A DNA stretch of 64,000 bases from positions 1 to 64,000 of the IMG/VR virus record IMGVR_UViG_3300029812_000326; one strand, 5' to 3'. Made by a program: the position numbers and the translations under genes. The notes under the pieces are model-generated. The model saw only the letters and a list, made by a program, of their open reading frames with translations. It had not been told where the DNA came from and made no database searches. The DNA is from a virus. This document shows, in pieces, positions 34,101 through 54,942 of this stretch. Every line of letters begins with the position of its first letter. Position 1 is the first letter of the stretch.

Positions 34101-37100
34101 TTATGAAAAAATTCGCGATGAAACGCGCTTTGGCTATTCCTGCGGCCATTTATGGTTATCGTGCTATTGACACTTTTCTAACCGTAAATCCACTTTTAAA
34201 CCATACCATCTTTGATGACGGATTGACATCCGCTGGAGCCCAAATAATTGGAAAAGCAAATGTTGCTAGAGCTGAAGTATTTGATACATTGGGAATAACG
34301 GATAAAGCTCAATATTTAGAAGGACTCATGCCAGGATCTATGGAATCCCCCGCTGCAAAATTATTCAGAGCGGCCGCACTTCCGATTTTAGGAAGAAAAT
34401 TTGGTGGGGGACCAGGGCTTATGATTGGATTAGGAGCTTCAGCTGCAACAGGATTTGGTCTTCCTGATTTAACCAGATCTGCAGATGAACTTCGAGACGT
34501 TTATTCCGGAAGAAAGCTCGTACCTCATCGCAGCGGAAGATATTGGGAAACTTGTGTAACCCATTGCCCTATAATGACTTATAATGGAATAAAGTATCCT
34601 GAAGAAATAATTGTTGGAGATAAAATAAAAACATTTGATGGATCTGTTGGTAAAATATTGGCAAAATCCGAAAGAAAATTAATTCCTAATGAAACTGTTT
34701 ATAATATAAAAACCTCATTACCATTCAAAGTAGAACTAACTGGTAATCATGAATTATATATACTACGAAATGATGAATTGCGATGGATACCAACAGAAAA
34801 TATAATGACCACTGATTTATTGGCTATACCATTTCATAAACGGACTTATAAAAGGAAAAATTTATGGCTGCCAAACATATTAGATTGTTCCAAGATTTGG
34901 ACTGAGGGTGAAATATTATATCCAATGCAATTTAAATCTTGTTGGTCAAAGTCTACAAAAAATGGCATCCCCGCATCAATTCCTTTGACGAGAGAATTCG
35001 GGCGTTTAATAGGATATTATCTTGGTGATGGCAATGTTTTTAATAATGTTGGTAAAGCATATGGAATTGAATTTTGTTTTGATAAACACGAAATTTATTA
35101 TGCGGAAGATGTTCAAAATATAATTCATGAAATTTTTGGATTAAAATGTACAATTAGACGGAAAGGTTCTGGATATATAATTGTTCGCTGTTTGAATACA
35201 TTGGTTGGTCAACTATTCGAAACCATTTTTACGAGAAAAAAAATAGTTCCGGAATTTATTTATAATATATCAAATTCAGATTTTCATCGAGGCATTATTG
35301 AAGGACTATGGGAATCGGATGGGTCTGTTGATAAAACTGGAACTAATATTCAATTAAGTTTGGTAAATCCAAATATTATTTTATATGCATTTGAACAATT
35401 GTTGCGATTGGGCATAATTCCAACATTTCGAAAATCAGAAACAAACTATGAATCATTGAAAAAATTAAATCCAATTAAAAAGCAATATGGCGAAACATAT
35501 CATTTATATATTCCATCTAAATATAGAGTCAAGTTTTGGAAAAACATTCATATTAAAAAAGAAAAAAAGAGCCCAAAACCGAAACAATCTAAAATCAAAG
35601 ATACATGTTTAGTCGATGACAAATACTATTATATATCAATTTTAGATAAACAAACAATTCAATATGATGATTTGGTTTATGATTTTATGGTGGATCATAA
35701 TTTTAGTTATTGTGGTCCAACATGCACATATCATAATTCCAAATTGTCTTATTTTGGCGGAAGAATCAGATATTTTGAACCTAGTTGGTATACAAAAATT
35801 GTAAGTCAATATAAATATACGGACGCGGCATTGGGAACCAAGCTAGAATCATTATTATATACAGGCCCCTTAAGCGTATTAACAGATCCCTATCATTTCG
35901 AACGGGAGCATTTTTTCGATCGGCCTTATCCAACAACCGCTGGTCTTTTTTCAGATGTACCCGTAATTGGGTCAATCGCAGACATGACGATTGGAAGACT
36001 TTTAAAGCCTCAAGTTATGATGCATGAAGATGAATTAGAAGCAGCCCAAATGGGATTTGATGTAGAATCGAAAAATAGAATTTTACCCGGATACAATAAA
36101 AATACAATGCCACCTTTGCATGAAGCCCGACCTGGTTATTTTGCGCCAAGGCATACTATCCCATCAGTGAGCATGAAAGGAATGTTAGGAGATTCATTTT
36201 ATAGACTTACCGAAGCTGCTGGACTGCGAGGATTTATGACACAAGCGATATTGGGTCGAGAAGGGATCGGCCAATATGCCCCAGTGTATGATGATGCATC
36301 TGCAATTACTAGTTTCGGACATCAATTTTGGGACGCGGAAATAGGCGGTGGAATAATGTGTTTTGATGGGTCAACATTAATATCAACAACAAATGGATAT
36401 AAAAAAATATGTGATATCAAACCTGAAATGCAAATTGTCAATTTGTCAGGAATATATAAAATTAAAAACAAATTTAAAAGAATTCCAAATGATGATGATG
36501 AAATGTATGAAATATCTGTCAATTCACATCCTAATAAAATTAAAGTCACCGGAAATCATAAAGTACTGGCGCACAGAACCAAGTGCCATTGGAAATCGGA
36601 AAAATCGCATCGTCCAAATAATAATGGAATTTGTCCATATTGTAATAAAAAATTTGTCGAACATTTAAAAGAAATTAGAGTTTGTGATTTACGTCTTGGC
36701 GATTTTCTTATAACTCCGATCCCGATTGGACAAAATGAATACATTATTGATTTTGCAAAATATATGCCAATTTTCACAGATGATTTTGTTTATTCTCAAG
36801 GATCCAAAGAATTTTTTGAAATATATGAACGATTACAATTGGATGGTAATTTACAATATTCAGATTTTCATGATCAAAGATATTATGATGCGAAAAAATC
36901 TACTGGTAATCACAAAAAATGGATACGATATTTGCAATTAAATGAGGATTTATGTTATTTGATTGGATGGTGGATTGCAGAAGGCTGCATACAAAAGAGC
37001 ACTATGCACCTTATAATGCATAAAGATGAAATTGGTGTCGCCCATAAATTGGGTAATATCGCAAAACGATTACTTGGCATTGAAAATTACTATATTCGGT

Positions 37101-40100
37101 CTAATGGTGAAAATTGTATTAGTTTGTATTTTTCGCATCGGCCCTTTGTCAATTTTTTGAAAGCCGAATTTGGCTACGGATCACATAATAAATATATTTC
37201 GCATGACATTAAACAAATGAAAAATGAATATGTTTCCGCATTGTTGAAAGGACTCATGGAAGGAGATGGTTGGGAGAATGAATCCAAGGGTGGGTTTACA
37301 ACTGTTAGCCAACAGTTGTTATTGGATATGATAGAATTGTTTGCCAAATTGGGGAAATTGCCCCATGCATATAGTTATTATGAAATATCAAAAAATGGTG
37401 AGTATCCCCAGGGTGGAAAAAGGAAACCAACGTTGCGATATTATTTAAAATATAACAAAAATACACGTGGGCGATTCCATAATTTCATATTCAATAATAA
37501 ATTATATAAAAAAATTACAAAAATTGAACAAATTGATTGTCCACGGTTTTTGTATGATTTAGAAATTGAAGATGTTCATCAATATCAAGCAAATGGAATT
37601 ATTGCTCACAATAGTGAGGCTTGGAGAAGATTATATCCAAGAGAAAGATTTAAAAATTTGGTAAATCCAATCAGGAATTTGGCTCCAAATTGGTTGCCGG
37701 AAGAATTCAAAACTGGCGATCCATATTGTATTGGATTAGAATCATTGATTGATACAGAAAATGGATTGATAAAAGCAAAAGATGTTTCAGTAAATGATAG
37801 ATTAAAAACTCACGATGGTTCATATCGGCGAATCATGGCGGAAAAAATTAGAAATTTGAAACAAAATGAATTTGCATATGAATTCCGCATTACCGGATTG
37901 CCAGCAATTCCATCCACTATATTTTCTGAAGATCATCCCATTTTGGGATTAAAAAATTATGAAATTAAACAAATTCATAATAGGAAATATGGACAAAAAT
38001 ATTATCGCAAAATGCGTAATGCAAAATGTTACAATTTGAAAAAATTGCCGCATCCAAAATGGATTAAAACAAAAGATTTAAATCCAGGAGATTATGTTGC
38101 TTATCCGATTCCACAATATGAGGAAAAAAATATTATTATTGATATGGCAAAATATACTAAGTTCAAATACACTGATAGATGGATTTATCCAAAACATTGC
38201 CATCCGGAAATATATGAATATTTTTTATCCAATCCCTGCCCATATAATATTCAACAATTGGCTATAGAATTCAATGTTGAAGGAAGCACGTTGGATGCTA
38301 TTCGAGATCATATCAAAGCAAAACGCTACGCAATCCGGTATCCAAGATACATAGAATTTGATGAAGATTTAGCTGCACTTTGCGGATATTATGCTGCAGA
38401 AGGTTGGGCAGGAAACAATGGGGAAATTGGATTTGCGCTACATGTAAAAGAAAAATCTACAATTGTAAAATATTTGGATCATATTTTTAAAAAATTCATA
38501 AATCGAAGTGGAGAAATATATCAATATGAAAGAAATGGAAATGGAATTGACTATCGAATAGGTTCTGGTTATCTTGCTGATTTTTTGGGACAAATCGGGC
38601 ATGAAGCACATGAAAAGCATATTCCCAAAGAATTTTTTCATTTGCATAAATCATATTTAATTCCATTAATTAAAGCATATTTTGAGGGCGATGGTTGTTA
38701 TTTTTCAGATGGAAAACGCGCAAGATTTTCTGCAAAATCAGTTAGTTTACAATTATTATATGATATTAGAAATATATTATTATCCTGGGGCATAATAAGC
38801 AATATAAATTACGATCCTGGCGGCCGGACGTCAAAAATTGGAAATCAAATTATCCATGCTGGGATTTCATATAGTTTAAATATTAATTCAGAAAATGCAT
38901 TAAAATTGGCAAAATTGTTCCAAATTAAATTAAAATGCAATTCTAAAATGCTACATTCGTATTCATTCATCTACGATGGATATTTATGTATGCGCGTTAA
39001 TAATAAGCAAAAAGTTTCATGTGACCAAGTCATAGGATTTGAAATTGAAAACGATTCTTTTTGTGTATTAGGAATTGCAACTCATAATACTCACATCAAA
39101 GGGGGTTTGATTTTGCTTCCATCTCGCGCTCACGAAAAAATGTATCATGTGAAGCATAATTTTCCTATTGATTTAGAATATTTTGGATATGAACCCGGAG
39201 AGGCCGCAGGAAGACTATTGAAATTGATTAGACCGGAAAGAGAAGAAGAATATCATTATTCATTTATTAAAGAATTAATTCAAAAGCAATTATTGATGAA
39301 TAGGCAACTGCTATCCAAAGACGTGCCACTTTTTAATCCTTGGTCAAAGATTGAAGGGCATGTTGATGCTATTATTATGAATCAATCTGGAATTCCAGAA
39401 CTGATGCAAATAAAAGCAACTACTGCTGAAAAACTTGGATTCATGCAGCAGCCAAAACCGGCGCACGTATCTCAGCTCAATTTTGCTATGAGACAAATGA
39501 AGAAAAGATATGGACAAATACTTTATGTTGCGTCAGATAATCCAGAATTAAGTAAATCTTTTTATATAGAATATAATTCGGAACGATTTCGCAATGATAT
39601 GTCAAGAATAAATGAAGCTCGGGAATTGGCATCAGATATGTTACTCAAAGGCATTGGGCAAGTTGGAGAATCCTATTCCTATCCTGATAGATTACAAATT
39701 TTAGCCAATGTATCTCCGTGGGCTCCGGAATATAAAAAAGTTTTGAAGCAATGTAGATTGTTAAAAAGCCATGGATTACTGGATGAAGAAGATCAGGTTA
39801 AAGTAGACGAAGCCCGTAGGCAACATGATGCGATTATGAGGAAATTTGATTTTTATCCTCATCGATTTAGCCATGGTAAATGGCTTACTCCTGACCCAAC
39901 CTATAATTTGATGTCTCAGAATGAAAATATTAAAACTGCTGCAAAATATAATATTATTGAAAGATTAATGGGCGCAGCTTATGAACGATTATTGGAATTT
40001 GATATCCCGGTTGTCCATTCTAAATTGCTTCCATATTATACACCAGAACAAATGTACGAGAGACAAATTGGAGGCAGTTTCAGTGGGCAGTGGTCCAGAC

Positions 40101-41980
40101 CTATCCATGATTATATAAAACCCTGGTGGCATAGTTTTCTCTTATCAACGAATCCAGTTGCATCGGCGATTAAACTTGGATTTGCTGGTGGAGTATCTGC
40201 AGGCCCCCCCGGTGCCGCAGTTGGTTTGGGTGCGGGATTATTATATGGTGCTGGAAGAAGTGTCGCTGGTCCAGGAACTTGGGTTCCGAAAGAGGTCAGA
40301 AAAACCCGAGAAATCGATGAATATTTTGATGCTTTGGAATATATAAAAAATCGTCAATTATATGAACAAACCGGCGACCCGGAATATCTTAAGCGATCAA
40401 GAGAAACAATTTATGGTGTCACTCCTATGAGCACACCAGCCGAATTTTATAGATCGGTTCCGTATATGGAACGTCCATTTTTCTGGTCATTTGCTTCCAT
40501 ACAGGATAAAATTCAACAGGATAGAATTAAACAGCGGATTTCGCCAACCATGAGAAAACTTTTGGAGCACTATTGGTCTGGAGAGAAAAAATTTACTAAT
40601 CCAATGATAGAGGATTATAATCCAAATTTCCGAATGCCAGCGGAGGATTGGATGGGATGGAGAGAGGATATTCCATTGGAGGATATACAACTTAAAACTG
40701 TCAAAATGGAAGGGCTAGATTGTTTCATTCCTACGCAAAAATTATTGACACTAAATGGTCCAATCGAAATACAAAATGTTGAGATGGACACTGAATTAGT
40801 GAATGCCCAGGGAAAGTTGAAAACCCCAATCTGTATATTCAGAAAATTTTATAAAGGCGAAATGATTAAATTAGATTTTAAAGGAACGTATTTTGATTTA
40901 ACCGGAACAAAAACTCACGAATTGGAGATAGCCAAAAAATGCAGAAAATTTGTATTTAAAAAACAAAAACTTCAAGATGTGCGGAAATACAATAGATTAA
41001 AATTATATGGCTATAATTTCCCAGAAACATGCAAAAAATTCGATGATATTAAAATTTCGAAAGATTTAGGATTTATTCTTGGCTGGTTTTTGGCTGAAGG
41101 AAGTTATGTATATAATCCCCTAAATAAACAACCAAAAGGAATTGTATTTTCATTAAATATATTGGAAAATGATATTGCAAAAAAACTTCAAAGTAAAATT
41201 AATAAAATATTTGGTTGTAATGTTTCAATCCACGAACGAACATCTTCAACTTCTGGAAATCCATATTTGCAAGTTACATCATTTTCTGTCAAAATGGCGA
41301 GATTTATATATAAGTTAATCAATCCCAACGCAAAAACGAAATATCTACATCCAATTGTATTCAAATTTCCAATTCCGATTCTCGAGGAAATAATTCGTCA
41401 ATGGTTCAATGGTGATGGATGGAAAACAAACAAAGAGGTTTGTGTTTGTACCGCAAGCGAGAAATTGGCAATTCAGGGGTGGTATATAATGCGATCCTGT
41501 GGGATGGAAGCCGCGATACAAAAAGCAAAGCAATATGGATACAAACCAGGATTTAATTACAGAATCAGGATTGGTCGTAAAAAGGACAAGGAAATATTTT
41601 ATTCCAATTGGAAATATGTTCCATGGACCACATTGACGGTATCAAAAATATATCATGTTAATTATGAAGGCGATATTTATGATGTAGAAATGCCGAATAA
41701 TCATTATTATACAACAATTTGTGGAACTGTTCATAATTCCCATGATTTTGGATTGGGATGGAAACCTCAAGAATTAAGAATGCATAATTCTCCATATGCG
41801 GTCAAACCGATAGACATTTCCAGTCCTTCTGGAATATCCTATGGTCACGAAAATTTAGAATCGGCTGATGTAAAAAATTTTGTTCAAAACATTTTGCAAA
41901 GATATGGTATAACAAATACAAATGTAGCTGTTACAAAATCTCAGGGCAGTGGCGCGACCATATCATTAAATATTAATTAA
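31133..41980 (+). CDS. Giant virion protein in the tape-measure position; four inteins and a Cas4/RecB-like domain (2009 aa after predicted splicing)
   Basis: Follows tail chaperones; Gly-zipper hydrophobic segments; four C...HN intein blocks; EGHVD..QIK..SQLNF motif. Confidence 0.7.
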   Translation: MYSDHFYEQRENLDYRDRQLPNPLKTIGAGAFSLLAFIVIRGAALRGSSAASKSLARNLPRVLRSVAAPKTWIKSYKNLRAAAIRSSRAEAKQFGILSPKDIGIAATVKEVPLIQRARAKFTTIFAKQIEARRQYYYRDLGLREKELYAALKEGYHPRALDQRLKALKTFMKPDGAFSARFMAAAGKWGERYAKMIPGFYVADQALGLFEKERPEHPKPAWYNIPGHVAGMVRFGIGFAPIDLAFSGARHLFRYGRAVSARGAQLGVREFPHVREKFAKTVETLHIKGAQWHASISKHWAARRHGAWPSIQELKRSIKERKAPHSMDIVRLYSDIVKDAKIQRKPYFKMEQQLNQILGVLGMRKDPEMLREMSKDTEIKKAFHEVLGKFERRPKQTFIEYALKTPERPADWAPRRLSTTSYIKRYAKEAQWDPETTNNVLKLLGGKELYYGKNILRKGNFSMFNASFTAGKVIDVMGKWKLPFINWHPFERMMITGIPKIGIPSKGSAFRILDEKQSALMAEAAIDADLNITRSPQLKIGEYFMRIGDHVFRFSPEKLIKRISGHWKVGVDTITAGERRYFQGMVESQTDYEHTGWLGHLRQKFELGRSPHFIGRRLKEYIIQDFNPESPHVLMHEKGKFAGMLERLQGDKIFSPREQKEFINYSRAIGRHLYGSEQNALELFHNNQGLRGKVLDILGGADAKKAKKILNDVNIDKVIDDLSMFDYALPEIYSQRTVQEVRRALHDVQNLVGADREFLLRSRATVVGQASNLSVQDYLMGQYFKKTLENYSKVGKITEDMYDKIFKSIDDAIVSKSEKSKAKSLFASMKINRPMSEHLNVYSDQEVINSLDTVGHLKDIISPNENLLRDVFKLDYRSLRESAKINRFMRDTLIPLEIRGYMGPINEIWRIQGHGVPSAPKDLFGAAPGFGDMITSSFNKFFRISDSATQINYEPYITKQSMLLHRWAIRPFNMTLGWIGLDLQYRSNAEFMKKFAMKRALAIPAAIYGYRAIDTFLTVNPLLNHTIFDDGLTSAGAQIIGKANVARAEVFDTLGITDKAQYLEGLMPGSMESPAAKLFRAAALPILGRKFGGGPGLMIGLGASAATGFGLPDLTRSADELRDVYSGRKLVPHRSGRYWETCVTHCPIMTYNGIKYPEEIIVGDKIKTFDGSVGKILAKSERKLIPNETVYNIKTSLPFKVELTGNHELYILRNDELRWIPTENIMTTDLLAIPFHKRTYKRKNLWLPNILDCSKIWTEGEILYPMQFKSCWSKSTKNGIPASIPLTREFGRLIGYYLGDGNVFNNVGKAYGIEFCFDKHEIYYAEDVQNIIHEIFGLKCTIRRKGSGYIIVRCLNTLVGQLFETIFTRKKIVPEFIYNISNSDFHRGIIEGLWESDGSVDKTGTNIQLSLVNPNIILYAFEQLLRLGIIPTFRKSETNYESLKKLNPIKKQYGETYHLYIPSKYRVKFWKNIHIKKEKKSPKPKQSKIKDTCLVDDKYYYISILDKQTIQYDDLVYDFMVDHNFSYCGPTCTYHNSKLSYFGGRIRYFEPSWYTKIVSQYKYTDAALGTKLESLLYTGPLSVLTDPYHFEREHFFDRPYPTTAGLFSDVPVIGSIADMTIGRLLKPQVMMHEDELEAAQMGFDVESKNRILPGYNKNTMPPLHEARPGYFAPRHTIPSVSMKGMLGDSFYRLTEAAGLRGFMTQAILGREGIGQYAPVYDDASAITSFGHQFWDAEIGGGIMCFDGSTLISTTNGYKKICDIKPEMQIVNLSGIYKIKNKFKRIPNDDDEMYEISVNSHPNKIKVTGNHKVLAHRTKCHWKSEKSHRPNNNGICPYCNKKFVEHLKEIRVCDLRLGDFLITPIPIGQNEYIIDFAKYMPIFTDDFVYSQGSKEFFEIYERLQLDGNLQYSDFHDQRYYDAKKSTGNHKKWIRYLQLNEDLCYLIGWWIAEGCIQKSTMHLIMHKDEIGVAHKLGNIAKRLLGIENYYIRSNGENCISLYFSHRPFVNFLKAEFGYGSHNKYISHDIKQMKNEYVSALLKGLMEGDGWENESKGGFTTVSQQLLLDMIELFAKLGKLPHAYSYYEISKNGEYPQGGKRKPTLRYYLKYNKNTRGRFHNFIFNNKLYKKITKIEQIDCPRFLYDLEIEDVHQYQANGIIAHNSEAWRRLYPRERFKNLVNPIRNLAPNWLPEEFKTGDPYCIGLESLIDTENGLIKAKDVSVNDRLKTHDGSYRRIMAEKIRNLKQNEFAYEFRITGLPAIPSTIFSEDHPILGLKNYEIKQIHNRKYGQKYYRKMRNAKCYNLKKLPHPKWIKTKDLNPGDYVAYPIPQYEEKNIIIDMAKYTKFKYTDRWIYPKHCHPEIYEYFLSNPCPYNIQQLAIEFNVEGSTLDAIRDHIKAKRYAIRYPRYIEFDEDLAALCGYYAAEGWAGNNGEIGFALHVKEKSTIVKYLDHIFKKFINRSGEIYQYERNGNGIDYRIGSGYLADFLGQIGHEAHEKHIPKEFFHLHKSYLIPLIKAYFEGDGCYFSDGKRARFSAKSVSLQLLYDIRNILLSWGIISNINYDPGGRTSKIGNQIIHAGISYSLNINSENALKLAKLFQIKLKCNSKMLHSYSFIYDGYLCMRVNNKQKVSCDQVIGFEIENDSFCVLGIATHNTHIKGGLILLPSRAHEKMYHVKHNFPIDLEYFGYEPGEAAGRLLKLIRPEREEEYHYSFIKELIQKQLLMNRQLLSKDVPLFNPWSKIEGHVDAIIMNQSGIPELMQIKATTAEKLGFMQQPKPAHVSQLNFAMRQMKKRYGQILYVASDNPELSKSFYIEYNSERFRNDMSRINEARELASDMLLKGIGQVGESYSYPDRLQILANVSPWAPEYKKVLKQCRLLKSHGLLDEEDQVKVDEARRQHDAIMRKFDFYPHRFSHGKWLTPDPTYNLMSQNENIKTAAKYNIIERLMGAAYERLLEFDIPVVHSKLLPYYTPEQMYERQIGGSFSGQWSRPIHDYIKPWWHSFLLSTNPVASAIKLGFAGGVSAGPPGAAVGLGAGLLYGAGRSVAGPGTWVPKEVRKTREIDEYFDALEYIKNRQLYEQTGDPEYLKRSRETIYGVTPMSTPAEFYRSVPYMERPFFWSFASIQDKIQQDRIKQRISPTMRKLLEHYWSGEKKFTNPMIEDYNPNFRMPAEDWMGWREDIPLEDIQLKTVKMEGLDCFIPTQKLLTLNGPIEIQNVEMDTELVNAQGKLKTPICIFRKFYKGEMIKLDFKGTYFDLTGTKTHELEIAKKCRKFVFKKQKLQDVRKYNRLKLYGYNFPETCKKFDDIKISKDLGFILGWFLAEGSYVYNPLNKQPKGIVFSLNILENDIAKKLQSKINKIFGCNVSIHERTSSTSGNPYLQVTSFSVKMARFIYKLINPNAKTKYLHPIVFKFPIPILEEIIRQWFNGDGWKTNKEVCVCTASEKLAIQGWYIMRSCGMEAAIQKAKQYGYKPGFNYRIRIGRKKDKEIFYSNWKYVPWTTLTVSKIYHVNYEGDIYDVEMPNNHYYTTICGTVHNSHDFGLGWKPQELRMHNSPYAVKPIDISSPSGISYGHENLESADVKNFVQNILQRYGITNTNVAVTKSQGSGATISLNIN
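34553..35737 (+). mobile_element. Intein 1 with LAGLIDADG endonuclease (395 aa)
   Basis: WET|CVTH start, LTGNH block B, LIGYYLGDG and EGLWESDG, TYHN|S end. Confidence 0.88.
36359..37612 (+). mobile_element. Intein 2 with LAGLIDADG endonuclease (418 aa)
   Basis: GIM|CFDG start, VTGNH, LIGWWIAEG and KGLMEGDG, IAHN|S end. Confidence 0.9.
37727..39088 (+). mobile_element. Intein 3 with LAGLIDADG endonuclease (454 aa)
   Basis: DPY|CIGL start, SEDHP, LCGYYAAEG and KAYFEGDG, ATHN|T end. Confidence 0.88.
40721..41737 (+). mobile_element. Intein 4 with LAGLIDADG endonuclease (339 aa)
   Basis: GLD|CFIP start, TKTHE, LGWFLAEG and WFNGDG, TVHN|S end. Confidence 0.88.
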
Positions 41981-41982
41981 TC

Positions 41983-44900
41983 ATGCCAATTATTTACGAT
42001 CAGGAAGAGAATCAATTTCGCGATAGATTCGGATATTTATTTCCAACTGTTTTATTAGGTGGTGGGTTCATGGCCTGGAAAAAATATTATGGATCTCCAC
42101 AACTTGGAAGGAAATTTTCACCCCGCGCATTCATAGGGTTTGTCAAAGATCTAAGCTCCCAAGATTATTTAAGAAAATATCTTACAAGGCCGGATAAGCC
42201 AGAGCTTCCTCTTCAGCACAGACTAGTAGAAACTGCGGTAGAATATGAGAAAAGTAAATCGGTAATAGAATTTCTTACCGATGCTGATCTGAAAACTGTT
42301 CGTGAAATTGGTAAAGCCTTGCCAACTCCAATTAAAGTGGAAGAAATTGAATTTAAACGTCAGGTAATTAGACAATTCAATCCAGTAACCTATGATTTGG
42401 TAAGGAATAATTTAGAAAAGACACAAGAAGTATTTAATGAATTGCTCGAAAATGTTGAAGATTCTAAACATTTACAAAGTATTCTTAAACAACAACTTGA
42501 GCGATATAGATTTAGAAAATCCCATTTGCTTATATATTCGAAATTTTCAGAAATTATTAGTCCAGAAATGCTGAAAAGCGAAGCTGAGCAGACGGTTTTA
42601 ATGAGACAACTATGGGATACGCAAAAGAAACAAACTCAGGAAGCCAGAAGACTTGCACAAATACTTCAAAGAGAATCCCCGGAAACTATAGTAAATTTGA
42701 AAATTCCAAAAGTTTTAGAACGCGTTGATCCCGCCATTCTGATAGATGAAAGACGAGCGAGACTTCAGCCTGCTGGCAAAACAATCAATGATTCAGGTAT
42801 TAAATTGTCTTATACAGGTTATAAATCATTTCTTCAAACGCTCAGAAGAGCAAGAGTTGATTCCAAAGCTATTGCTGCAATTGAAACAATTGATCCAATA
42901 CTAAAGCAGCATTTAAATGAGCTTGCTCATACAAAAGCCCGAATTACATATGCATTACAAGATAATGCTTTTAATTTGCGAGCTGTAATCAAATTGTCTA
43001 TTCAAGTCAAAGAAGAAGGCAAAAGAGAAACCATTAACTTGAAGATCCCGCTCACTCGTGGTGGAAGATTAAGAGTCAATGGAACGCGTTGGATTCCTCA
43101 AAGATATAAAGGCATCAAACCACTCATTCCTGAAATAGAACGAATTGAATCTGATATTTATGAATCGATGATCCGTAATTTGAATAAAAGATTTAAGAAT
43201 GAAGTTTGGCATAGAATAATGGCTGGAGATGCCCGAGGTGGAGAACGAGCCATCAATACTTTAATTAAAGAGCCGATTGATGAAAGATTAATCATGGAGG
43301 TTGGATGTCCAGTACATGATTTCATTGAACAAAATGTAATTCAGGATGCTAAGCTTGGCTATTTATCTCCTACTCGCGGATTTAAAAATGAAGATGAAAG
43401 ACGTGCTGTGAGTGACCGATTTAAAAAAATGCAGAAACTTAAATTACTTCTGATGGAAGGCGATGGAAAATTAAAATTACCAAATAGGTATGCATTTATA
43501 GATTTTGAAACATTTGGAACAAAAACGAATTACCTGCCGCATCAGGTAACCATTGGAATAATTGAAAATGGCGCAGTTGTTGATTGGTATACAGGAAAAG
43601 TTGATCCTCGAAGTATTAATGCCAATTATGCTTTCCCGGAAATTGATTTGAAACTTTCATTCAAAGGAAAAACAAGAGAGCAGGTTATGAAAGAATTTGA
43701 TGAAATGGGGCAACCCATTAGTAAAATTCGAAAAGAGTTGGAGGATTTCCTGCGGAAAAATGCCAAAGGAGGAAAGCTTCCGGTTGCGGCTTGGAGTGCT
43801 AGTTTTGATGTGGATAGGGTAATGGGCCAGCAATTCTTAGGAGCCAAAGCCTATTTGGGAGAAACCTGGGATCCGATGGATCTCCAAAAAGCTATTGATC
43901 CAGATGTCCAAGCTTCAGTTTCTCTTAGATCTGTTGGACAATCGCGGAAAATTTTCATTCCGACATCTTCAAAGAAAGATTTGACTCTTAATAAGAAAGT
44001 TATTGAATCATTTAAAAAAGATCATAAACTAATGGCTATTTTGAAAGACAAAGATCCTGGATTTTATAGCAAATTGGCAAAAGCGATTTCTGAAAAACAA
44101 ATACGAAATCTAGTGATGCATGAAGCATCAATTGATGTACTTATGGCAAATAAAGTTTTTCAAGACATTGCGAAGGATATTAATTTACATTCTTCGGTAG
44201 TGATGCGCGATTTAAATGCAATGTTATTAGCATATCATCGCGCATTAACTCGCTCGATAAATCCAATAGACGTTAATCATTGGACTACCAGAGCATTGGG
44301 ACATAACTTCCCATCTCTTTCTCCTGCTCAGATTTTGCAAGGTAAATTTACGAACTTTGACATCAGAGATTTAGCTCCGCTTACGAATTTGGGCTTGGAT
44401 CCAACAAGACCATTTTATCAGCAATGGAACTCCGCGCGTCTGATTACCACCCATGTTCCTGACTTGGTCACGAAGACATATAAAAAGATCGCGAGTAGGC
44501 GCGGAGAAATTTTCAAATCGATGGATATATTAACAATTTTTAATCCATTAACTGCGGAAAATGCTGGCTTGATAGATTTTCAGGCCGCAGATGAAATGGC
44601 AATTAAAATGGTATCGAAATTGATTAGAATCCCTCACACTGGTAATTTGAAACTCATACCGGAACTCAAGGAGGCGTTTGAGCAGATAAAATCAGCAAAG
44701 ACTCCGAAAGATCGCGAAATTGTATTATCGAAATTGAGGCAGAAAATGGCGAAAGCCTATCAGAAGGGATCCCGGTTTAAAGAATGGCTGCCAGGATATA
44801 CTTTACTTGGAGAAGCGGAAGGATTTACATTTGATACTTCGACTCCATTAATGTCAGCGATTGAAAATATTGAATATAATAATGAAAATAGAGAAATAGC

Positions 44901-47900
44901 TATACGTCTTCAAACTGCCAGTTGTCCTGAAAAATATGGGCATCCAATGAAAATTTTTGCATATCCATATAAAGGAATGTTAACTCCAATAGAAGGATTA
45001 AGATCGATTACTTGGGTTGATGCCGTTCTTCGTAAAGATCTTGCAAAACGCGGCAGAATGTCAGTCATGTTAGGCCAAATTCAAAGATTGACTAGGAATT
45101 TCCAAACCATTCATTCGAAATTAACTCCATCCCAAACATTTCAATTTTTTGAAACAGTTAAAATTTTTGTGAATAAAATAAATTCAATGGGTGGTATTAA
45201 ATTAGATTGGCAAGTCAATAAAGGTAAACTTCAATTTATAGACGAAATAACGGGAAAAGAATGGCAAAAATTGGATCTCGGAAAAATTGAAAAAAATTGG
45301 TTACAATTTTCCGAAGGCGAATGGGTTAGATTTATGAAAGAATATTCCCAAAAAATCCGACATATGATGATTTCATTTGGGATTAAATATTCCAGACATG
45401 ATCCTCGCTTGCCTTATTGGACTCAAGGTCAACTTGAATCGATGCTATCAACTGAATGGGGTAGACGATATCCTAAAAAACTAGCATTTGCTGATTTGTC
45501 CCGAGCTGAACAAAATGTATTTCGGGAAAAAATAGAAGTAGAAATGCACGAACAATTATCAAAAAGTGAATTCTCCAAATTTTTTACAAAAGCAGAATTA
45601 GAACGTTGGAAATCCGGAACTTTAATGGAAGGCCATCTTTCTTTGATTCAACTATTCGGCGGTTCTTGGGGAATATTAGAAGTTACTCCGGCATCTAGAG
45701 CATATGAAGCCGGAGAATTATATGCTAAAGGTGCCGATATAAAAATCCCCAGCTTGGATGAATTAGTTGTGTCCGGACCAATAGCTCAAAGAATTGCTCG
45801 CACATTCACTGGCGAACAGCGCGATATGATGAATTATATGTCAAACATCCAGCCCCTTTTGAGATATGGAATCTTGCCTGAATCTCATTATCCAATTATA
45901 AAAGCCTCAGAAATAAATCTTGATCCTATGACAACTCATTTAGGATTTAAAGAGGAAATTGGAATCATAGAAGATAAATCTTTCAGAATTAAATGCGTTG
46001 AAACTGGGGAAATTTTTAATTCTTTGGAAGAAGTTCCAGACCGCTATTTGAAGCAATATACATTAAGACCCATGGGTATGAATGCATATATGCACCCAAA
46101 AACCTTGGAATCGATGTATGGACAACAACCAACTATAGTTGAATTCAATATAGGGAAAAAGAAGGTTTACCTTCCCAGACCGGCATTATCATTTATCAGA
46201 GGTGCGCCCGCCAGAGTCACGAAAAGCGGAGATCCTTATACCATCATTGGAAAAGAGATTCAAACATTTAAAAATCTATTGATTGCGGCATCAGATTACG
46301 AGAAAATTAAAGGGGACGAAGCAAAAGCCGCATTTGAAAGAAAGTTCTTTTCACGGGCTGAAGACTATAAAAATATGATATTAACGGATAAAAATGCATA
46401 TATAAAAATGACCAAACCAACGATTCCTGGAGTTCAAGGAAAGATTTCCATGGCATTTGCCCCCGGAATGGCTAAAGCGTTGGGATTGCCGCAAGATATG
46501 TTTAGCCATATAACTACAGGATTTGGGATACAGGGAGTATCTGTAAAGTCGATGGGCGAAGAATATTTTAATAAAGCCATGGATGTCCATCAAATAAAGG
46601 AAGGATCGAATGTTGGAAAATATAGAGGCGCCACAGGAATGGTTTATCCGAATAAAATGGCGTTTAGGGAAGCTCTTATTGAAGGTGAAGAATTACTTGC
46701 GGGAACTATTATCAGAACCCCCGCAGAAAACCGATTCGCATTTTTTGATACATTGATCACTGTTAAAAAAGATCAAGCAGCTGGAATGCGCCTCCAACTT
46801 AGAGAAGCATTAGCAACCCACTGTGATTATGATGGGGATATAGGGCGCCTAGTATTTGCCGAGTTTTCTCCCCAGGAGCAGGAGCAAGCTTTGAAAGATC
46901 TCATAAATAAGCAACACGTTGATAGAAAAGCACATGCAACATTAGCTGAAAGGATCAAAAAGCTTCAAGCAAATGTGCTTGAATATGAAACCGGCAAAGA
47001 CGTCGCAACCAAAAAACAGATTGTCAAGGAAATTGAACAAATTCAAGAACTTGAAAAAACAATGAACGTTAATGTCTATGGTCAAGGTATTTGGGTAAGG
47101 GAAGCTAAACCAAAAGCGATTCCAAAAGAAATTAAATTAGGAATTGGCGATGAAATGAGATTTCGAAAAATGAATTTGCATCAGTTTATGAAAGAATTGC
47201 CATCTATTGATCTTCCCGAAAGATTGATCAAATTACCGGGTGAAGAATTGGAACAACATCTTTCCAATATGCTTACGAAAACTGCTACAGCCTACTCGTA
47301 TAGAAAAGCAATGACCATGAGATCAGCAACTAAGCTATTTGGTGGAAAATTAACTGAACAATATTTGGACTTATATAATGAATTGGCCGGAAAAGTTACT
47401 GCATTCAAAAAAGTTCCATATGAAAAAGCTGAGCAAATAACTAGAGCTCTATTGGAACCAGAAGCTGCAGAATCGAAAAAAATTATGGGAGAAGTATTAA
47501 ATAGGGATGCGGAAGAACTTTGGCCACAATTTAAAGAATGGCATTCTGCACTAAATCGTGCCATGATGAGAAAGGAAGTTAATGAATTAATCAGTTCTGG
47601 AATGAAACGCGCCCCTATTACGGGTGGACAGTTGGCATTATGGGGTCCAAGTGCAGAAATCCCTGCTGCAGGAAAGACTCGCGCAATTTTAGACTTTTGG
47701 GGTAAAGAAAAGTTTCTTGATAGCTTTAAACGTCAAGGGAAAAAAGGCGGCATTGCAATTGCGTTGGCCGCGCTTGTCGCTCCGATTTTCCTGTCGCACG
47801 ATAATATATATGATAAAAAAGGATATCCAATAATTCCAACGAATTTCAACGTTGCTCAGCCAATATTCCCAGCCCCTATTCACATAATACCAAACGATCC

Positions 47901-48807: not shown

Positions 48808-51800
48808 ATGAAAGTATATAATCCAATAGAGTGGAATATTGGTGTGCATGGTGGCTATGATAACCCCGATGATGCTAGAAATATAGTGCAGCCTCTTTTT
48901 GATTTATTGAATTATTTAAATCGATGGTGTCAAGACCAGGGAATGAATCATATTATTATTACTTCTGGAAGACGGGAGGCAAAGTATAATGCTAGCATTG
49001 GAGGAAGCCCAACAAGCTATCATTTGACTGGGCATGCGGCAGATATTGCCATAATCGGGCGCTATAATAGATGGGAACAAACTATGATTTACAATTGGTT
49101 GCACACTGTATTTGCTGATCAACTTGCTCAAGTTTTATATCATGGTACTGGAGGTAATTATCATTTACATATAGGAATTCGGAAAGGATCTGAAGGCATG
49201 GGGCCACTTTTGGAAACTGAAAGCAAAAGTGAAGGAATTATTGAAGAAAAAAAGCCCGGAACCAATTCTTGCAACATTATGAATGATAATATTATGGGAT
49301 ATAATGAAACAATTGCGACTCAGATACCGCTTGATATTTATAAAACGAGCTATGAATTACTTCAGGATGTTACTGAAGAAGAAAAAATTGATCCGTTGAT
49401 TGCATTAGCTCAAAAACCAGGATCATTTAAATTTGGCGCATGTTGGCTAACCGTGCCTCCAACATCAATTGCTTTTACAGAACAAAACAATATTGTTGGA
49501 ATTCCAACCCTTCGTACTAAAGGCAATGTATATTGGAGAACTGGCATCAATTCAATAAACATGGACCTTGAATTTTTGTTTCCAGGATTGATTCAAATTA
49601 ATGACGAATTGAGACATATAATTGCTCAAATTAAAAGATGCCCATTTTTACCTTTCGAAAATTATTATTTGCATTCATTGATATTTCCGGAATTAAAATC
49701 TGCTAAGCCTCAACCTGATATCCCATATGAATTTACCACGGAAGAAAAAACGCAACATGAAAAACAAACTGGCACTCAGGATAGACTTCAACAGCAGCAA
49801 TGGCGATTGAAAAACAAAAAGATTATGGATATAGTCAAATCCGGAGATGAAAAAAGCCTGAAAGAATTTATTGAAAAAGGTAAAAAATATGGATATTTTA
49901 TTCAAGACGCGGAATCTCAAGAAGATAGACGCGAAAGAACTGAACAGCTTGAAAAGCTTTATGAATGGATGGGAAAATATAGACATATTGATGTGGATGA
50001 TACTAGTGGATTAAGCTACCGAGATCAACAAATGGTAGCGGCAATACGATCAATATCGATTACATCTGTGCCCGGATTTCCCAAAACTCTTCAAATGAAT
50101 TGTTCCTGTGATATTTTTAATTATTTTCCTTATACTTCTGCGTTTAGTTTCATAGAAAATGAAACAAAAAACGAAGTTCCGGTTTTCAATATTTCCAAAA
50201 GTGCACTGTTTGGAAAATATTATAAAGGAATGCTCACTAGAAATAATGCCCAAGAATTTAAAGATGCATTTGAATCCACAACAAAATTGGAAGCCATTGG
50301 ATCTGATGAACGTATGGATTATTTGCATCTGAGATATATTTATTCTAAAGAATCGAAAAACCGAGCAATATTAGCTCAAAGAGCTATATTGGAATATATA
50401 CAAGCGATCAAAGATTTTGGAGAAAGCTATGAAGCAGCGCCAGCTGCAGAATTATATCAAAATCTTTTCATATTTCTTACGCATCCCAATTTTGGAGGTT
50501 GGCAAAATCTATTTGATGCGCCTGGAAACGTAATAGATGCCATAAAAGAATTGGGAAAAGATGCAGTAATCGCAGGAAAAAGTATTATTGCTGTGGTGAA
50601 ATTTTATCAAGATTCTTTTGGGGAATATTTACTTGGCATAAATGCAAATAATGAAATATATGTCATAGGTAATAGGAAAGGGCGGGAATATTTCCTTCCA
50701 CTTAAAGATGCAATTAAAAATCCGGAATATCGGACAAGATTATTATTTTATATTAAAGATTATTCAGTTAAAATCCGATCGTTACAATATAATCAGCGGG
50801 ATTTGAAACTTGGAGATCAGAATTCTCAAATAGTTGGAATTTCAGCATCAATGGAAACAAAACTTGTGCCAATGAATATATTAGCATTTACGAAACCAAC
50901 TTTCCAACATCTTGGAAATTCAGAATGGGTTGTTACATTAACGGTTGAAACATCAGATCCAAATTTAATAAGAGATTTTCGCATGATGACTGAACGGCTC
51001 AATCAAACCGCCTTATCACAAATTGCAGTGTTACCGGAAATTCGGGATTATGCGGATCTTTCTGCGCAAATTGTTGAAGGACCATTTTTTAAACTTTTAG
51101 GAATAGAAAATATAATTCCTGGTAATTTCAGATATTCTACCGTGGAAGGAAAACCCGGCATATTCCATATTCAAATCGATTTTGTACAATCCGATTTAGA
51201 ATTGAAAACATATGAAGCACTTCAAGCTCCTGCATATTTTCCGTCTGATTTTATCAAATCATTCATTAAATTAATCCCAGTGTTATTGCTTGAAAATATT
51301 TCTTCTAAACTTGAAGCTGATTGGAATAATTATCACATTATTCATAAATATAAAATTGGAATGCAGCTTTTGCATCAAACATTAGAAAATTATCCGAAAT
51401 GGTCAAAATTTCTATTTTATTTATGTAAACCAATTCCAAAATCTTTATGTTCAGAATCAATTCCAGTCTATAAATTTATTCTTAATGACATAAGTTCCGA
51501 ATTAATTGCAAAAAAGCAACAAAAAGATTTATTTAAATGGGATTGGAAAGATATCCTTATGTACGCCGGTGCATATTTTACTGCAAGATTGGGGGCGGGA
51601 CCGGGTCCAGTTGGTGATGTAAGAGCCCATTCAGGTGCGATGGCAGCAAAATTTACATTTACGAATTTACTTAACACTACAATATTTGCGGCATATAAAG
51701 GTGCCGTTGGACGACAATTGAAAGCAACGTTGAATGAAGCCATAAATAGGGAAAATGTTCCGTCCGAATTAAAGATTGATTCAACAGAAAATGGACGGAA

Positions 51801-54800
51801 ACTTCTTGAACTTATAAGAGAAAATCAAAAATATCTCCATATCAGAAATTCGACGTATCCTGATTTGGAACTTCCAATTATCGCAGATTCTCCTGATTTT
51901 TGGTTTTTCCGAGAACCATTATATAATGATAACATTCGAGAATTTGCCGATGTAATAGTCAGTGGGCATGAAGATATAGTTCTTAAATTGGCGAAACTTA
52001 ATTCTATGAATAAACAAGGAAAAGCAACTACCCAATTGGCTAAATTAGATCAAATTGCTAAAGAAGCCAAAATTAAAGAAGTTTTGGTTTCAGAAGAACT
52101 CAATAAAAATTTATTGAGCTATTTAAGAGATGCAAATGAAGATTTACAATTCAATATAGAAAGATCTAAAGATCTTAAAGAAAATGCACATCTTATGATG
52201 GAAACAAAGCGAAATAAATCTCAAGAATATTCGGGGCGCGCAGATGAATCGACATTAAGAAGCAGATTATCAAGGATTAAACATGATATGGAATATTATA
52301 ACGATTCGTTGAAAATTATAAATTTAATAGAATTAAAAAACATGGATTTCCAAACTACGGGCGATCTGTTGGATATTGCATTAGTTTTAGCAAAAAATTG
52401 GGGAATTTGTACTCCGAGGGATGCGCAACTTGAAAAACAAATGCTTCAAGATGCTATGAATCTTGATGAAAATAAAACTTTAAGATTGGGTCGGGCATTT
52501 CCAACTTTTAAATTATATTTTATAGAAAAAGATAAAGAAGAATGGTTATTGTTTGATGATTTTTATGGATATGGCGCAGTAAAAGAAATTCAAATAAGGA
52601 AAATTAGAAAATCTCCGATTCATACTGCGGTAGTTACATTATCAAATATCACTAATGTACTTCAGGATATTCATGCTCCAAAGAATGAAAATATTTCTAA
52701 ATCAGAAACGGCAGAAGAGCAACCAAATATTGACACTATGCTTCTTCAAGAAGGTTGTGAAATAATGATTAAGATGGGCTATGAAAATGATTCCAATAAA
52801 TTGAAAGTTGTATTTCAAGGATCGATTGTAAGTATACAGCCCGGACCAGAATTGCAATTTATTGCACAAGGGTGGGGAGCAGAGCTTGGCCAGCCAATTC
52901 AAGATTTTAGTGTTGGAAAATGGAGCACAATTCGGGATTTCGGAGATATAGCGACCGCAATTTTAAATAAAGTTTCTGGATTGAGGCATTTTGGAACAAC
53001 ATATAATTTAGCAGAAATGTTTGATGATCTACCAAATATTCAATACAGATCTGATCGTCGAGAAACATATGTTGGTAGATTGAAAAATTGGTCGCTTCAA
53101 GGATTGGGGCTAAATCCACTGCTTGATCATAGAGACGACAACGTTTGGTTGCCATATCATAGTCCTCCCAGCATTTGGTCGCTAGCCCATATTATAGAAG
53201 GAAAAGGATTTGCATTTGATTGGAGAGTATATAATAAAACCGCGTGGGATGCACTTGATGAGGTATTGAAATATATGCCGGGATATATTATGAAGATTTT
53301 GCCTTATAATGAAGATAATTTGCAGTCTGCTAGATGCACATTATATATAGGCCCAAGGGATGGATATTATATGGCTACGGATGATTCAGAAGTTGTCAAC
53401 AGGACATCGGAACATGATAAATATCAAGAAAGAAGAAATAGATGGTACATGCGCGTTAAAGGCATAAAAGCACCAACGAAACAAGAATTGATAATTAAAC
53501 TTAGAAATTTTAACATAGATTATGATAGCAATACAAGTATAATTTATAAAGAATTTATAAATCAAAACATTATTTGTCAAAATGATGAATGCAGCTTAAT
53601 GAAAGCAAGTCCATTTAATCCAACAGTAGTTCAATGGAGTGGACAATTATATACCATGGAAATTCTATTTGGAGGAAACGAAATATGTCATAAAATTAAT
53701 AAAGAACATTGGAAAAGACAATATTTTAATGTTTTAAATGGTTCAGGTATGACACGGGCCATCATGATATATGATGTTTATGACAAACTTCATTTCAAAG
53801 ATTTTGAAAGAGTCTACGGTAAAGCTAGCCTCTTTGAACGAGCAACTGAAGGAGTAGAAAGATTTACTTATGGGAAAGACGATAATCCTAAAAGGCTGGC
53901 CGGAAAACGAGGATGGAAACGAGCATGTAAAACTCATTTTATTGATAGTTATCATCACATAATTGAAAATAATATGAAAGCTTCGCGCGAAAATATGTAT
54001 AATAAGGTTCACTTAATCTATCCAAAAGGCGAACCTCAAATGGCTGCAAATGAAACGCAACTTAAAACTGGAGATTTATCTGAATTTGAAATGCTTGCAG
54101 ATGACAATATAAAACCTGATATGATAAGAACGCATAAATTATTTTTTACCAATATTGACGTTGATCGAACAAGAAATTTTATAGATTCAATTGGAAATGT
54201 TCTTAAAGGTCTTGGGCAAACGATTGGACTTAATGATCGTGGGAATTTTCCCGATATTCCACCATACGCAATAGTAGCGAATACGATACTCGCTGAAGAT
54301 TTGAAAGATATGTATGATGGAGAAATTATTATTTTGCTCGATCCAAATATTGATATTCATGATGTAGTCTATATATACGATGATGTAAATGAAATTTATG
54401 GGCCAGTTGGAGTAAAAGAAATTTATCATTATTTCTCTATGGCACATGGAGCTTATACAGTAATTGTGCCCGATCTTATGTCATATCCCAGTAATCTAGA
54501 ACAAACTGTTGAATTGGGTTATGCTTCAGCATTATATGCAGCATTAATTAAAATAGTCCTTGGTGGCATTTTAATTGGTGGAGGCGGCGCGCTTTTGGCT
54601 GGGAATTTGCTTGGACCATGGACTGGAGTAGGAGTCGCGGGATTTAGTTTGGCATTTACGTATAAACTTGCTTCTTCTATAGGTTCTGGTGGAATAAATA
54701 AACTCATGGGAAGAGAGGGTTCTGAATTCGTGCCCATATGGAGAAAGGGTGCCCCATTTCTTGCTGGAATGGATGGATATAGAAAAGATGATCTTATAGT

Positions 54801-54942
54801 TCATTATATGGATAAAATTACTCGAATAAGTGGAACGTTTAAACAACTGAGTGCAAGCCTAATTGGATTAAGAGATAAGCCAGAAGGTACACAAATGGCA
54901 TTACCAATTCTTGGATATAAAAACGAAAATTTAATTTTTTAA
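48808..54942 (+). CDS. Large baseplate hub-like protein with N-terminal M15 (LAS) peptidase
   Basis: ITSGRR..SYHLTGHAADI..HLHI; IMIKMGY..VVFQGSI..FIAQGWG hub-like segment; C-terminal Gly-rich TM; upstream of gp25-like and J-like genes. Confidence 0.7.
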   Translation: MKVYNPIEWNIGVHGGYDNPDDARNIVQPLFDLLNYLNRWCQDQGMNHIIITSGRREAKYNASIGGSPTSYHLTGHAADIAIIGRYNRWEQTMIYNWLHTVFADQLAQVLYHGTGGNYHLHIGIRKGSEGMGPLLETESKSEGIIEEKKPGTNSCNIMNDNIMGYNETIATQIPLDIYKTSYELLQDVTEEEKIDPLIALAQKPGSFKFGACWLTVPPTSIAFTEQNNIVGIPTLRTKGNVYWRTGINSINMDLEFLFPGLIQINDELRHIIAQIKRCPFLPFENYYLHSLIFPELKSAKPQPDIPYEFTTEEKTQHEKQTGTQDRLQQQQWRLKNKKIMDIVKSGDEKSLKEFIEKGKKYGYFIQDAESQEDRRERTEQLEKLYEWMGKYRHIDVDDTSGLSYRDQQMVAAIRSISITSVPGFPKTLQMNCSCDIFNYFPYTSAFSFIENETKNEVPVFNISKSALFGKYYKGMLTRNNAQEFKDAFESTTKLEAIGSDERMDYLHLRYIYSKESKNRAILAQRAILEYIQAIKDFGESYEAAPAAELYQNLFIFLTHPNFGGWQNLFDAPGNVIDAIKELGKDAVIAGKSIIAVVKFYQDSFGEYLLGINANNEIYVIGNRKGREYFLPLKDAIKNPEYRTRLLFYIKDYSVKIRSLQYNQRDLKLGDQNSQIVGISASMETKLVPMNILAFTKPTFQHLGNSEWVVTLTVETSDPNLIRDFRMMTERLNQTALSQIAVLPEIRDYADLSAQIVEGPFFKLLGIENIIPGNFRYSTVEGKPGIFHIQIDFVQSDLELKTYEALQAPAYFPSDFIKSFIKLIPVLLLENISSKLEADWNNYHIIHKYKIGMQLLHQTLENYPKWSKFLFYLCKPIPKSLCSESIPVYKFILNDISSELIAKKQQKDLFKWDWKDILMYAGAYFTARLGAGPGPVGDVRAHSGAMAAKFTFTNLLNTTIFAAYKGAVGRQLKATLNEAINRENVPSELKIDSTENGRKLLELIRENQKYLHIRNSTYPDLELPIIADSPDFWFFREPLYNDNIREFADVIVSGHEDIVLKLAKLNSMNKQGKATTQLAKLDQIAKEAKIKEVLVSEELNKNLLSYLRDANEDLQFNIERSKDLKENAHLMMETKRNKSQEYSGRADESTLRSRLSRIKHDMEYYNDSLKIINLIELKNMDFQTTGDLLDIALVLAKNWGICTPRDAQLEKQMLQDAMNLDENKTLRLGRAFPTFKLYFIEKDKEEWLLFDDFYGYGAVKEIQIRKIRKSPIHTAVVTLSNITNVLQDIHAPKNENISKSETAEEQPNIDTMLLQEGCEIMIKMGYENDSNKLKVVFQGSIVSIQPGPELQFIAQGWGAELGQPIQDFSVGKWSTIRDFGDIATAILNKVSGLRHFGTTYNLAEMFDDLPNIQYRSDRRETYVGRLKNWSLQGLGLNPLLDHRDDNVWLPYHSPPSIWSLAHIIEGKGFAFDWRVYNKTAWDALDEVLKYMPGYIMKILPYNEDNLQSARCTLYIGPRDGYYMATDDSEVVNRTSEHDKYQERRNRWYMRVKGIKAPTKQELIIKLRNFNIDYDSNTSIIYKEFINQNIICQNDECSLMKASPFNPTVVQWSGQLYTMEILFGGNEICHKINKEHWKRQYFNVLNGSGMTRAIMIYDVYDKLHFKDFERVYGKASLFERATEGVERFTYGKDDNPKRLAGKRGWKRACKTHFIDSYHHIIENNMKASRENMYNKVHLIYPKGEPQMAANETQLKTGDLSEFEMLADDNIKPDMIRTHKLFFTNIDVDRTRNFIDSIGNVLKGLGQTIGLNDRGNFPDIPPYAIVANTILAEDLKDMYDGEIIILLDPNIDIHDVVYIYDDVNEIYGPVGVKEIYHYFSMAHGAYTVIVPDLMSYPSNLEQTVELGYASALYAALIKIVLGGILIGGGGALLAGNLLGPWTGVGVAGFSLAFTYKLASSIGSGGINKLMGREGSEFVPIWRKGAPFLAGMDGYRKDDLIVHYMDKITRISGTFKQLSASLIGLRDKPEGTQMALPILGYKNENLIF

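Follow-up and report, generated by a model that had tools for sequence, protein, structure and literature searches.

We identified a DnaQ-like 3'-5' exonuclease domain of the DEDDh type in P0001, a giant tail-module protein encoded in IMG/VR virus record IMGVR_UViG_3300029812_000326, in the same polypeptide as motifs resembling those of two-barrel RNA polymerases. The stretch analyzed (hereafter, the window) comprised the first 64 kb of this 108,870-bp phage contig. The exonuclease domain, its fold class, its conservation, its fusion to the motif-bearing region, and the gene order around it are established by the data presented below. We lean slightly toward a reading of the whole protein in which an active DEDDh exonuclease and a virion-carried, single-chain two-barrel polymerase would work together on a 3' end.

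The domain was recognized by three motifs. ExoI (FIDFET), ExoII (WSASFD), and ExoIII (HEASID), carrying D507, E509, D609, H713, and D718, lay in one frame of the P0001 open reading frame (ORF), exactly as a first-pass annotation of the sequence had described them, and the location proposed there (nucleotides 43480-44170) was right, the domain covering nucleotides 43480-44193, or amino acids (aa) ~500-737. ExoIII was of the H-x4-D rather than the Y-x3-D subtype, and the ExoII acid D609 followed an aromatic residue (F608). The gap between ExoII and ExoIII was ~104 aa in P0001 as compared with ~59 aa in Escherichia coli epsilon.

Profile searches placed the sequence in the same superfamily. The Pfam model of Rv2179c-like 3'-5' exoribonucleases (PF16473) matched aa 504-611 with 23.6-26.2 bits (E 4.6e-5 to 8.6e-6), and phrog_192, annotated as "DNA polymerase exonuclease subunit", matched the domain at E 3e-6; both matches spanned the ExoI-ExoII part of the domain. 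The Rv2179c-like match recurred in five of the seven sequences scanned (approximately three independent lineages, three of the sequences being close relatives of the window), and NCBIfam DnaQ-family models were matched in three independent lineages at E 1e-3 to 1e-2. Two points count against the assignment. The PF16473 match covered profile positions 3-112 of 177 and fell just under the gathering cut-off of 27 bits, and therefore we filed the domain under the DEDDh superfamily and not under PF16473. Additionally, single-sequence searches with the domain reached no known exonuclease; phmmer against PDB sequences returned chance-level matches only (LINE-1 endonuclease, E 0.04).

Structural prediction agreed with the profiles. 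For aa 470-770, AlphaFold2 predicted, from an alignment of seven sequences, an alpha/beta fold of the RNase H-like class that had DnaQ topology (pLDDT 80.5, pTM 0.80). In this model, D507 and E509 were located in strand 1, D609 where the helix following strand 4 begins, and H713 and D718 in the long C-terminal helix, and these positions were the Exo motif sites of DnaQ-fold enzymes. Foldseek against the PDB returned DnaQ-fold proteins only, including a Cas2-linked DnaQ domain, the DinG exonuclease, DexA, Orn, the PolC exonuclease, ExoI, TREX, and RNase T, and matches in a viral structure library were phage DnaQ-like, DexA, and exoribonuclease proteins. The absence of an RNase H-like fold, which would have spoken against the first-pass annotation, was thus not observed, as the fold searches returned DEDD exonucleases exclusively, and the assignment of the domain to a DnaQ/RNase T-type DEDDh signature was borne out by profile, model, and fold searches alike. 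Alignment with E. coli epsilon by hhalign placed D507/E509 onto D12/E14 and D609 onto D103 of HNAAFD; this alignment of motifs I and II (E 0.0014, probability 18%) was supportive at most. In comparison with DnaQ-like DEDDh enzymes (Orn/REXO2, RNase T, ERI-1/3'hExo, Cap18, the DinG N-terminal exonuclease, and Pol III epsilon), the P0001 domain showed 10-18% identity and had a helical insertion of ~45 residues between ExoII and ExoIII. It was also embedded in a 2,015-aa tail protein, whereas those enzymes either stand alone or are attached to a DNA polymerase or a helicase. From its motifs and its predicted fold, we are highly confident that aa ~500-737 constitute a genuine DEDDh 3'-5' exonuclease domain.

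The family to which P0001 belongs was extremely rare. A HMMER scan with aa 470-1669 against 1.84 billion representative proteins yielded five clusters: a single one with 85% identity, a pair of full-length ones at 33% and 30%, and two contig-end fragments. A word-seeded search together with scans of IMG/VR and JGI metagenomes recovered the close relatives L001-L003 and the divergent loci L004 and L005, and tblastn of the whole of P0001 against 50,697 phage records gave no match. The homologues were 2,000-2,055 aa long and 26-90% identical. Conservation was assessed in the window group, L004, L005, and the protein P0005, plus the fragment P0006. D507, E509, H713, A715, and D718 were invariant across this set, the lineages of which were 26-40% identical to the window protein. 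The ExoII acid was Asp in the window group and P0006 (NAKFD) and Glu in L004, L005, and P0005 (NFE), so that the acidic residues, the variation of which would have contradicted the first-pass annotation, were unchanged save for a conservative D609-to-Glu replacement in three divergent lineages. We regard this change as conservative because alternation of Asp and Glu is documented in active nidovirus ExoN, which is of the DEEDh type and of which an E191D mutant is viable with an enzyme that stays active (PMC7654266).

The block of aa 501-550, which contains ExoI, had 13 invariant columns out of 50, among the highest in P0001, and dN/dS between close relatives was 0.04-0.08 in the exonuclease domain, like the rest of the chain (0.04-0.11 over the whole length). 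The catalytic residues are under strong purifying selection, and the domain is probably active as judged from its sequence. That it might be a catalytically dead structural remnant would be in line with its strong divergence, its score under the Pfam cut-off, and the failure of single sequences to match known exonucleases; we consider this very improbable, given that the five catalytic positions were kept at only ~30% overall identity with the Asp/Glu exchange as the sole change, and given the low dN/dS in the domain.

The exonuclease was also never found apart from the second set of motifs. Both the exonuclease and the motif HxDxDGD were kept in the close homologues and in each of the three divergent full-length ones (L004, L005, and P0005), so that the co-occurrence for which the first-pass annotation had suggested a survey was found in every full-length homologue. 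The HMMER search with aa 470-1669, covering homologues of all lengths, revealed no form without the exonuclease. The exonuclease is therefore fixed in every detectable member of this rare giant-protein family.

Next, we focused on the polymerase-like half of P0001. The first-pass annotation had described the exonuclease as fused inside a putative RNA polymerase. The two do share one chain, but the exonuclease is N-terminal to all polymerase-like motifs and not inside the putative core, which follows it 850-1,100 residues downstream. H1613-x-D1615-x-D1617-G-D1619 was invariant in homologues at 26-30% identity, and P0001 held the sole DxDGD among all ORFs of the 108.9-kb contig. The spacing from RxP to the first Asp of this motif was 37 residues in P0001, 38 in crAss-like gp66, 37 in P23-45 gp96, and 35 in E. 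coli beta'. On the basis of these motifs, the fusion partner is likely to be a two-barrel RNA polymerase. A search of the ESM Atlas provided a sub-threshold lead to clusters of the phage RdRP family (PF05183; score 0.81), which is a lead only; its "named" search gave nothing relevant.

Several results weigh against a polymerase coupled to the exonuclease. The exonuclease is far from DxDGD along the sequence. Candidates for the basic residues of the second barrel (K990-x6-K997, K1249-G1250, and G1486-K1487) were invariant, with no assignment to a barrel. The AlphaFold2 model of aa 1050-1969, built on a 5-sequence alignment, had a pLDDT of 37 and was unusable, and no fold search was made from it. 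When hhalign was restricted to the DxDGD region, RxP and DxDGD fell in register with gp96, and DxDGD with beta', at E 0.03-0.04, which is not significant; against gp66, the same region gave E 0.6 and the motifs were not aligned. With the family aligned to full-length gp66 and to gp96 residues 1-1200, the best matches (E 0.25-0.42) lay outside the polymerase motifs. When brief segments surrounding the polymerase-like motifs were searched against Pfam at E up to 10, no RNA polymerase family was detected, and the whole-family profile found nothing among PDB sequences. The DxDGD motif could instead be a calcium-binding loop.

This last point belongs to a broader alternative, in which the C-terminal two thirds of P0001 would be not a polymerase but a tape-measure or ejection scaffold carrying a nuclease, with DxDGD as a metal- or calcium-binding loop. 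The lack of significant profile or fold support for double-psi barrels, the location of the gene in the tape-measure slot, and a hydrophobic C-terminal segment such as occurs in tape measures all agree with it. This segment (aa 1921-1942) was found at the same place in four of six homologues and may insert into a membrane during ejection. We nevertheless consider a pure scaffold fairly unlikely. RxP and HxDxDGD were invariant at 26-30% identity, with a spacing of 37 residues like that of the solved single-chain polymerases (gp96, 37; gp66, 38), and the language-model lead to PF05183 clusters, weak as it is, points in the same direction. Moreover, viral two-barrel polymerase families have been reported to lack significant similarity beyond the small motif region (PMC10770324).

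We compared P0001 with the known proteins of this kind. Gp96 of Thermus phage P23-45 is likewise a giant in the tape-measure slot with RNP...DFDGD at a 37-residue spacing, and its proposed role is to transcribe the first genes as the DNA enters (PMC10770324). It differs in coming from a phage with a long non-contractile tail and shows no detectable sequence homology to P0001, of which the polymerase fold is only putative; the words exonuclease and nuclease are absent from the paper on gp96 (PMC10770324). Gp66 of phi14:2, a crAss-like phage, resembles P0001 in being a single chain of ~2,000 residues encoded beside two further virion giants (one of them with a protease/peptidase domain), and it contains YRIP...DFDID at a 38-residue spacing (bioRxiv 10.1101/2020.03.07.982082; PDB 6VR4 as cited in PMC10770324). 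It differs in being a podovirus protein, in having Ile or Val at motif position 4 where P0001 has Gly, and in the absence of detectable homology to P0001; ~1,600 of its residues are without an identifiable homologue, and no exonuclease was reported in it (bioRxiv 10.1101/2020.03.07.982082). P0001 would work most like gp96 and gp66, with which it shares the motifs, its membership in this group being partial while the fold is putative.

Giants of cultured jumbo phages supplied a further comparison. The record of Bacillus phage 0305phi8-36 lists two giants encoded upstream of its hub homologue as virion proteins on the ground of mass spectrometry, one of them (ORF146) as "hypothetical tape measure". 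In vB_BceM_WH1, gp095 (a 2,515-aa "virion structural protein"; locus L015, 9351-16898) is encoded just upstream of the hub and contains N-R-Y-P followed after 37 residues by DHDGD, and may, judging by these motifs, represent a two-barrel polymerase of the tail slot that has gone unannotated in a cultured jumbo phage. Because of these giants of 0305phi8-36 and WH1, the tape-measure slot is seen to hold virion proteins in cultured phages and to be able to hold the same polymerase signature. Alignment of the P0001 family with WH1 gp095 and 0305phi8-36 gp146 by hhalign produced no meaningful alignment, and a phmmer search of PDB sequences with the two Bacillus-phage giants found nothing. As a separate observation, ORF146 of 0305phi8-36 (2,537 aa; locus L014, 9926-17539) contained an ExoI-like YLDIETTG at aa ~1222 and no DxDxD. 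Neither gp145 nor gp146 of this phage had a Pfam match, and hence no exonuclease was shown there despite YLDIETTG.

Other pairings of an exonuclease with a polymerase differ more widely. The nidovirus nsp14 ExoN (DEEDh; PMC7654266) is a separate subunit that serves an RNA-dependent, right-hand-type polymerase of RNA viruses, and ExoN was structurally farther from the P0001 domain than the cellular DEDDh enzymes were. The exonuclease-polymerase fusions of PolC and of families A and B are DNA polymerases with unrelated catalytic folds.

For P0001, we infer a polymerase fold, packaging in the virion, injection, a nuclease substrate, and coupling of the two activities, as follows. P0001 would be packaged in the particle and would enter the cell with the phage DNA, by analogy with packaging and ejection in P23-45, crAss-like, and N4-like phages; the fusion of the P23-45 virion RNA polymerase to the tape measure is a precedent for such delivery (PMC10770324). 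Inside the cell, early transcription would be initiated by the polymerase, with the exonuclease acting in cis on a 3' end. The likeliest such end would be that of the nascent transcript, where the nuclease would either excise misincorporated or backtracked 3' nucleotides or trim the products. Our preference for this polymerase-coupled role is modest. DEDD domains edit 3' ends in DNA polymerases, as nidovirus ExoN does in the service of an RNA polymerase, and to our knowledge every well-understood pairing of a DEDD domain with a polymerase serves the nascent 3' end; the coupled role is favored on this ground and because the exonuclease and DxDGD modules were never separated in detectable homologues. 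The more specific proposal, that a covalently attached DEDDh nuclease edits transcript 3' ends in place of Gre/TFIIS-stimulated cleavage as a DNA-virus counterpart of coronavirus ExoN, is doubtful. Against the coupled role in general, proofreading by multisubunit RNA polymerases takes place at the active site of the enzyme itself, so that we know of no precedent for a separate editor among DNA-dependent two-barrel enzymes. Nor did the structural neighbors of the exonuclease point to one substrate, as RNA-, DNA-, and dinucleotide-specific enzymes were tied within 1 Z unit.

The ties among structural neighbors also bear on two alternatives with other substrates. The exonuclease might work on DNA, being injected with the genome and resecting 3' ends so that the co-injected polymerase gains access to single-stranded template or promoters, or, together with the neighboring Cas4-like nuclease, preparing terminally redundant genome ends for annealing and circularization. 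DNA exonucleases (DinG-exonuclease, epsilon, ExoX, ExoI, TREX, and Cas2-DEDDh) were among the tied best structural matches, the conserved upstream partner bears a PD-(D/E)xK/Cas4-like nuclease, and crAss-like gp66 is strongly active on single-stranded DNA templates (bioRxiv 10.1101/2020.03.07.982082). Resection of the 3' strand, however, leaves a 5' overhang that a polymerase could read only outwards to the end, and the contig measures 108.9 kb as compared with up to 130.9 kb in a relative; on balance, a DNA substrate seems unlikely, though it is a competitor to be taken seriously. A role as replicative proofreader was ruled out because a distinct DNA polymerase, equipped with an exonuclease module of its own, is encoded elsewhere on the contig (minus strand; Table 1).

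Alternatively, the exonuclease could be an injected weapon that is independent of the polymerase and degrades nucleic acids of the host or of defense systems (such as mRNA or DNA of the host, guide RNAs, and short oligonucleotides serving as signals or primers), the whole chain being a polyvalent delivery protein. All three adjacent giants have enzymatic modules (a nuclease, a nuclease with the polymerase motif, and a peptidase), and injected multidomain "polyvalent proteins" are a described theme (PMC5512222). In that survey, DEDD is absent as a term and the sole occurrence of "exonuclease" is in a reference-list title (PMC5512222). The Z differences of less than 1 between neighbors favored no subfamily, and the fact that the exonuclease is inherited strictly together with the DxDGD module in all homologues suits the coupled role better, so that we consider an independent weapon quite unlikely, though again a serious competitor.

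The fusion appears to be new. Among the papers that could be searched in full text, none combined a two-barrel polymerase with an exonuclease of the DEDD or DnaQ type, and the fusion was not described in surveys of jumbo phages and polyvalent proteins. Nor did any of the other genomes indexed for comparison contain a sequence resembling that of P0001. Virion-delivered single-chain two-barrel RNA polymerases are known to us from few phages (crAss-like gp66 and P23-45 gp96), and we know of none reported with a nuclease. The coupled role raises the question of whether a cell-type RNA polymerase uses a separate 3'-5' editing nuclease, like DNA polymerases and coronaviruses, and the alternatives raise the question of whether template preparation or the disarming of the host requires a nuclease in the injected machine. 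Our picture of how phage infection begins would gain a new element with either answer, and the domain is small and well defined with obvious catalytic residues, which makes mutational and biochemical tests straightforward. P0001 also shows that enzymatic cargo can be accommodated in the tape-measure slot of large myoviruses.

We then examined the genomic context of P0001 (Table 1). The plus strand of the window carried genes for the large terminase, portal, protease, major head protein, tail sheath, and baseplate wedge; because of this set, including terminase, portal, head, sheath, and baseplate wedge, we assigned this uncultured phage to those with contractile tails. Three giant ORFs of 3,615, 2,015, and 2,044 aa were located between the sheath and baseplate genes, and P0001 was the middle one, starting 3 nt after the stop codon of the upstream giant ORF. 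Its position, between the tail sheath and the baseplate-hub homologue, is the tape-measure slot. The body of the downstream giant showed a relationship to the baseplate hubs of jumbo myoviruses of Bacillus and Acinetobacter, among them 0305phi8-36 and ME3. The nuclease module of the upstream giant matched phrog_1706 (E 6e-10, ~aa 2714-2835). A module of this type was also found upstream of the P0001 homologues in L004 and L005, with the hub/peptidase giant downstream in both, and the gene order of Cas4-like-nuclease giant, exonuclease-DxDGD protein, peptidase giant, and then baseplate wedge was kept at 30% identity.

Table 1. Coordinates of features of P0001 and of genes elsewhere on the contig
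Feature	Position	Strand	Details
Giant tail-module protein P0001	41983..48030	+	2,015 aa; ORF translation, homologues
DnaQ-like DEDDh 3'-5' exonuclease domain	43480..44193	+	aa ~500-737; predicted
ExoI, FIDFET	43495..43512	+	aa 505-510; D507 and E509; first beta-strand of model
ExoII, WSASFD	43792..43809	+	aa 604-609; D609
Insertion between ExoII and ExoIII	43900..44082	+	mostly helical, poorly conserved, lineage-specific
ExoIII, HEASID	44119..44136	+	aa 713-718; H713-x4-D718 ("h" variant); long C-terminal helix
K990-x6-K997-G	44950..44976	+	candidate beta-like barrel lysine pair; both lysines invariant
IIRTPAEN	46708..46731	+	invariant R1578-x-P1580, 37 aa before first Asp of DYDGD
DYDGD	46825..46839	+	aa 1615-1619 (D1615, D1617, G1618, D1619), preceded by H1613; candidate Mg-binding catalytic motif
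Hydrophobic segment	47743..47808	+	aa 1921-1942; near C-terminus
Tail sheath	23754-26471
Upstream giant ORF	31133..41980	+	3,615 aa; approximately four intein/LAGLIDADG insertions and Cas4/PD-(D/E)xK-like nuclease module
Downstream giant	48808..54942	+	2,044 aa; N-terminal Peptidase_M15 (Peptidase_M15_3) and baseplate-hub-like body
Baseplate wedge	56136-57380
Large glycosyltransferase	90750-93089	-
Primase-helicase	94569-97097	-
Sigma factor	101627-102652	-
DNA polymerase	102819-106016	-	1,065 aa; exonuclease module and inserted endonuclease-like segment

Beyond the window, a block of genes for replication and regulation occupied the minus strand (89380-106016). The sigma factor encoded there would be consistent with the host polymerase being redirected later in infection.

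Mobile elements were found in and between the giant genes. Pfam matches to Intein_splicing and LAGLIDADG_3 in the upstream giant were located at ~aa 1185-1472, 1776-2160, 2513-2594, and 3419-3493; inteins are unusual within a tail-module protein. The orthologue of the downstream giant in L004 contained an extra inserted nuclease module (phrog_452/20876, aa 836-931). A small ORF for an HNH-type endonuclease (CxxC...CxxC, 113 aa; 48464-48805) was located between the P0001 and hub genes, and the matching gap in L004 (8344-9027) contained a homing endonuclease of another kind (phrog_314; weaker match to the GIY-YIG family). The occupation of the same gap by different endonucleases in the window and in this distant relative suggests that it is a recurrent landing site for endonuclease genes.

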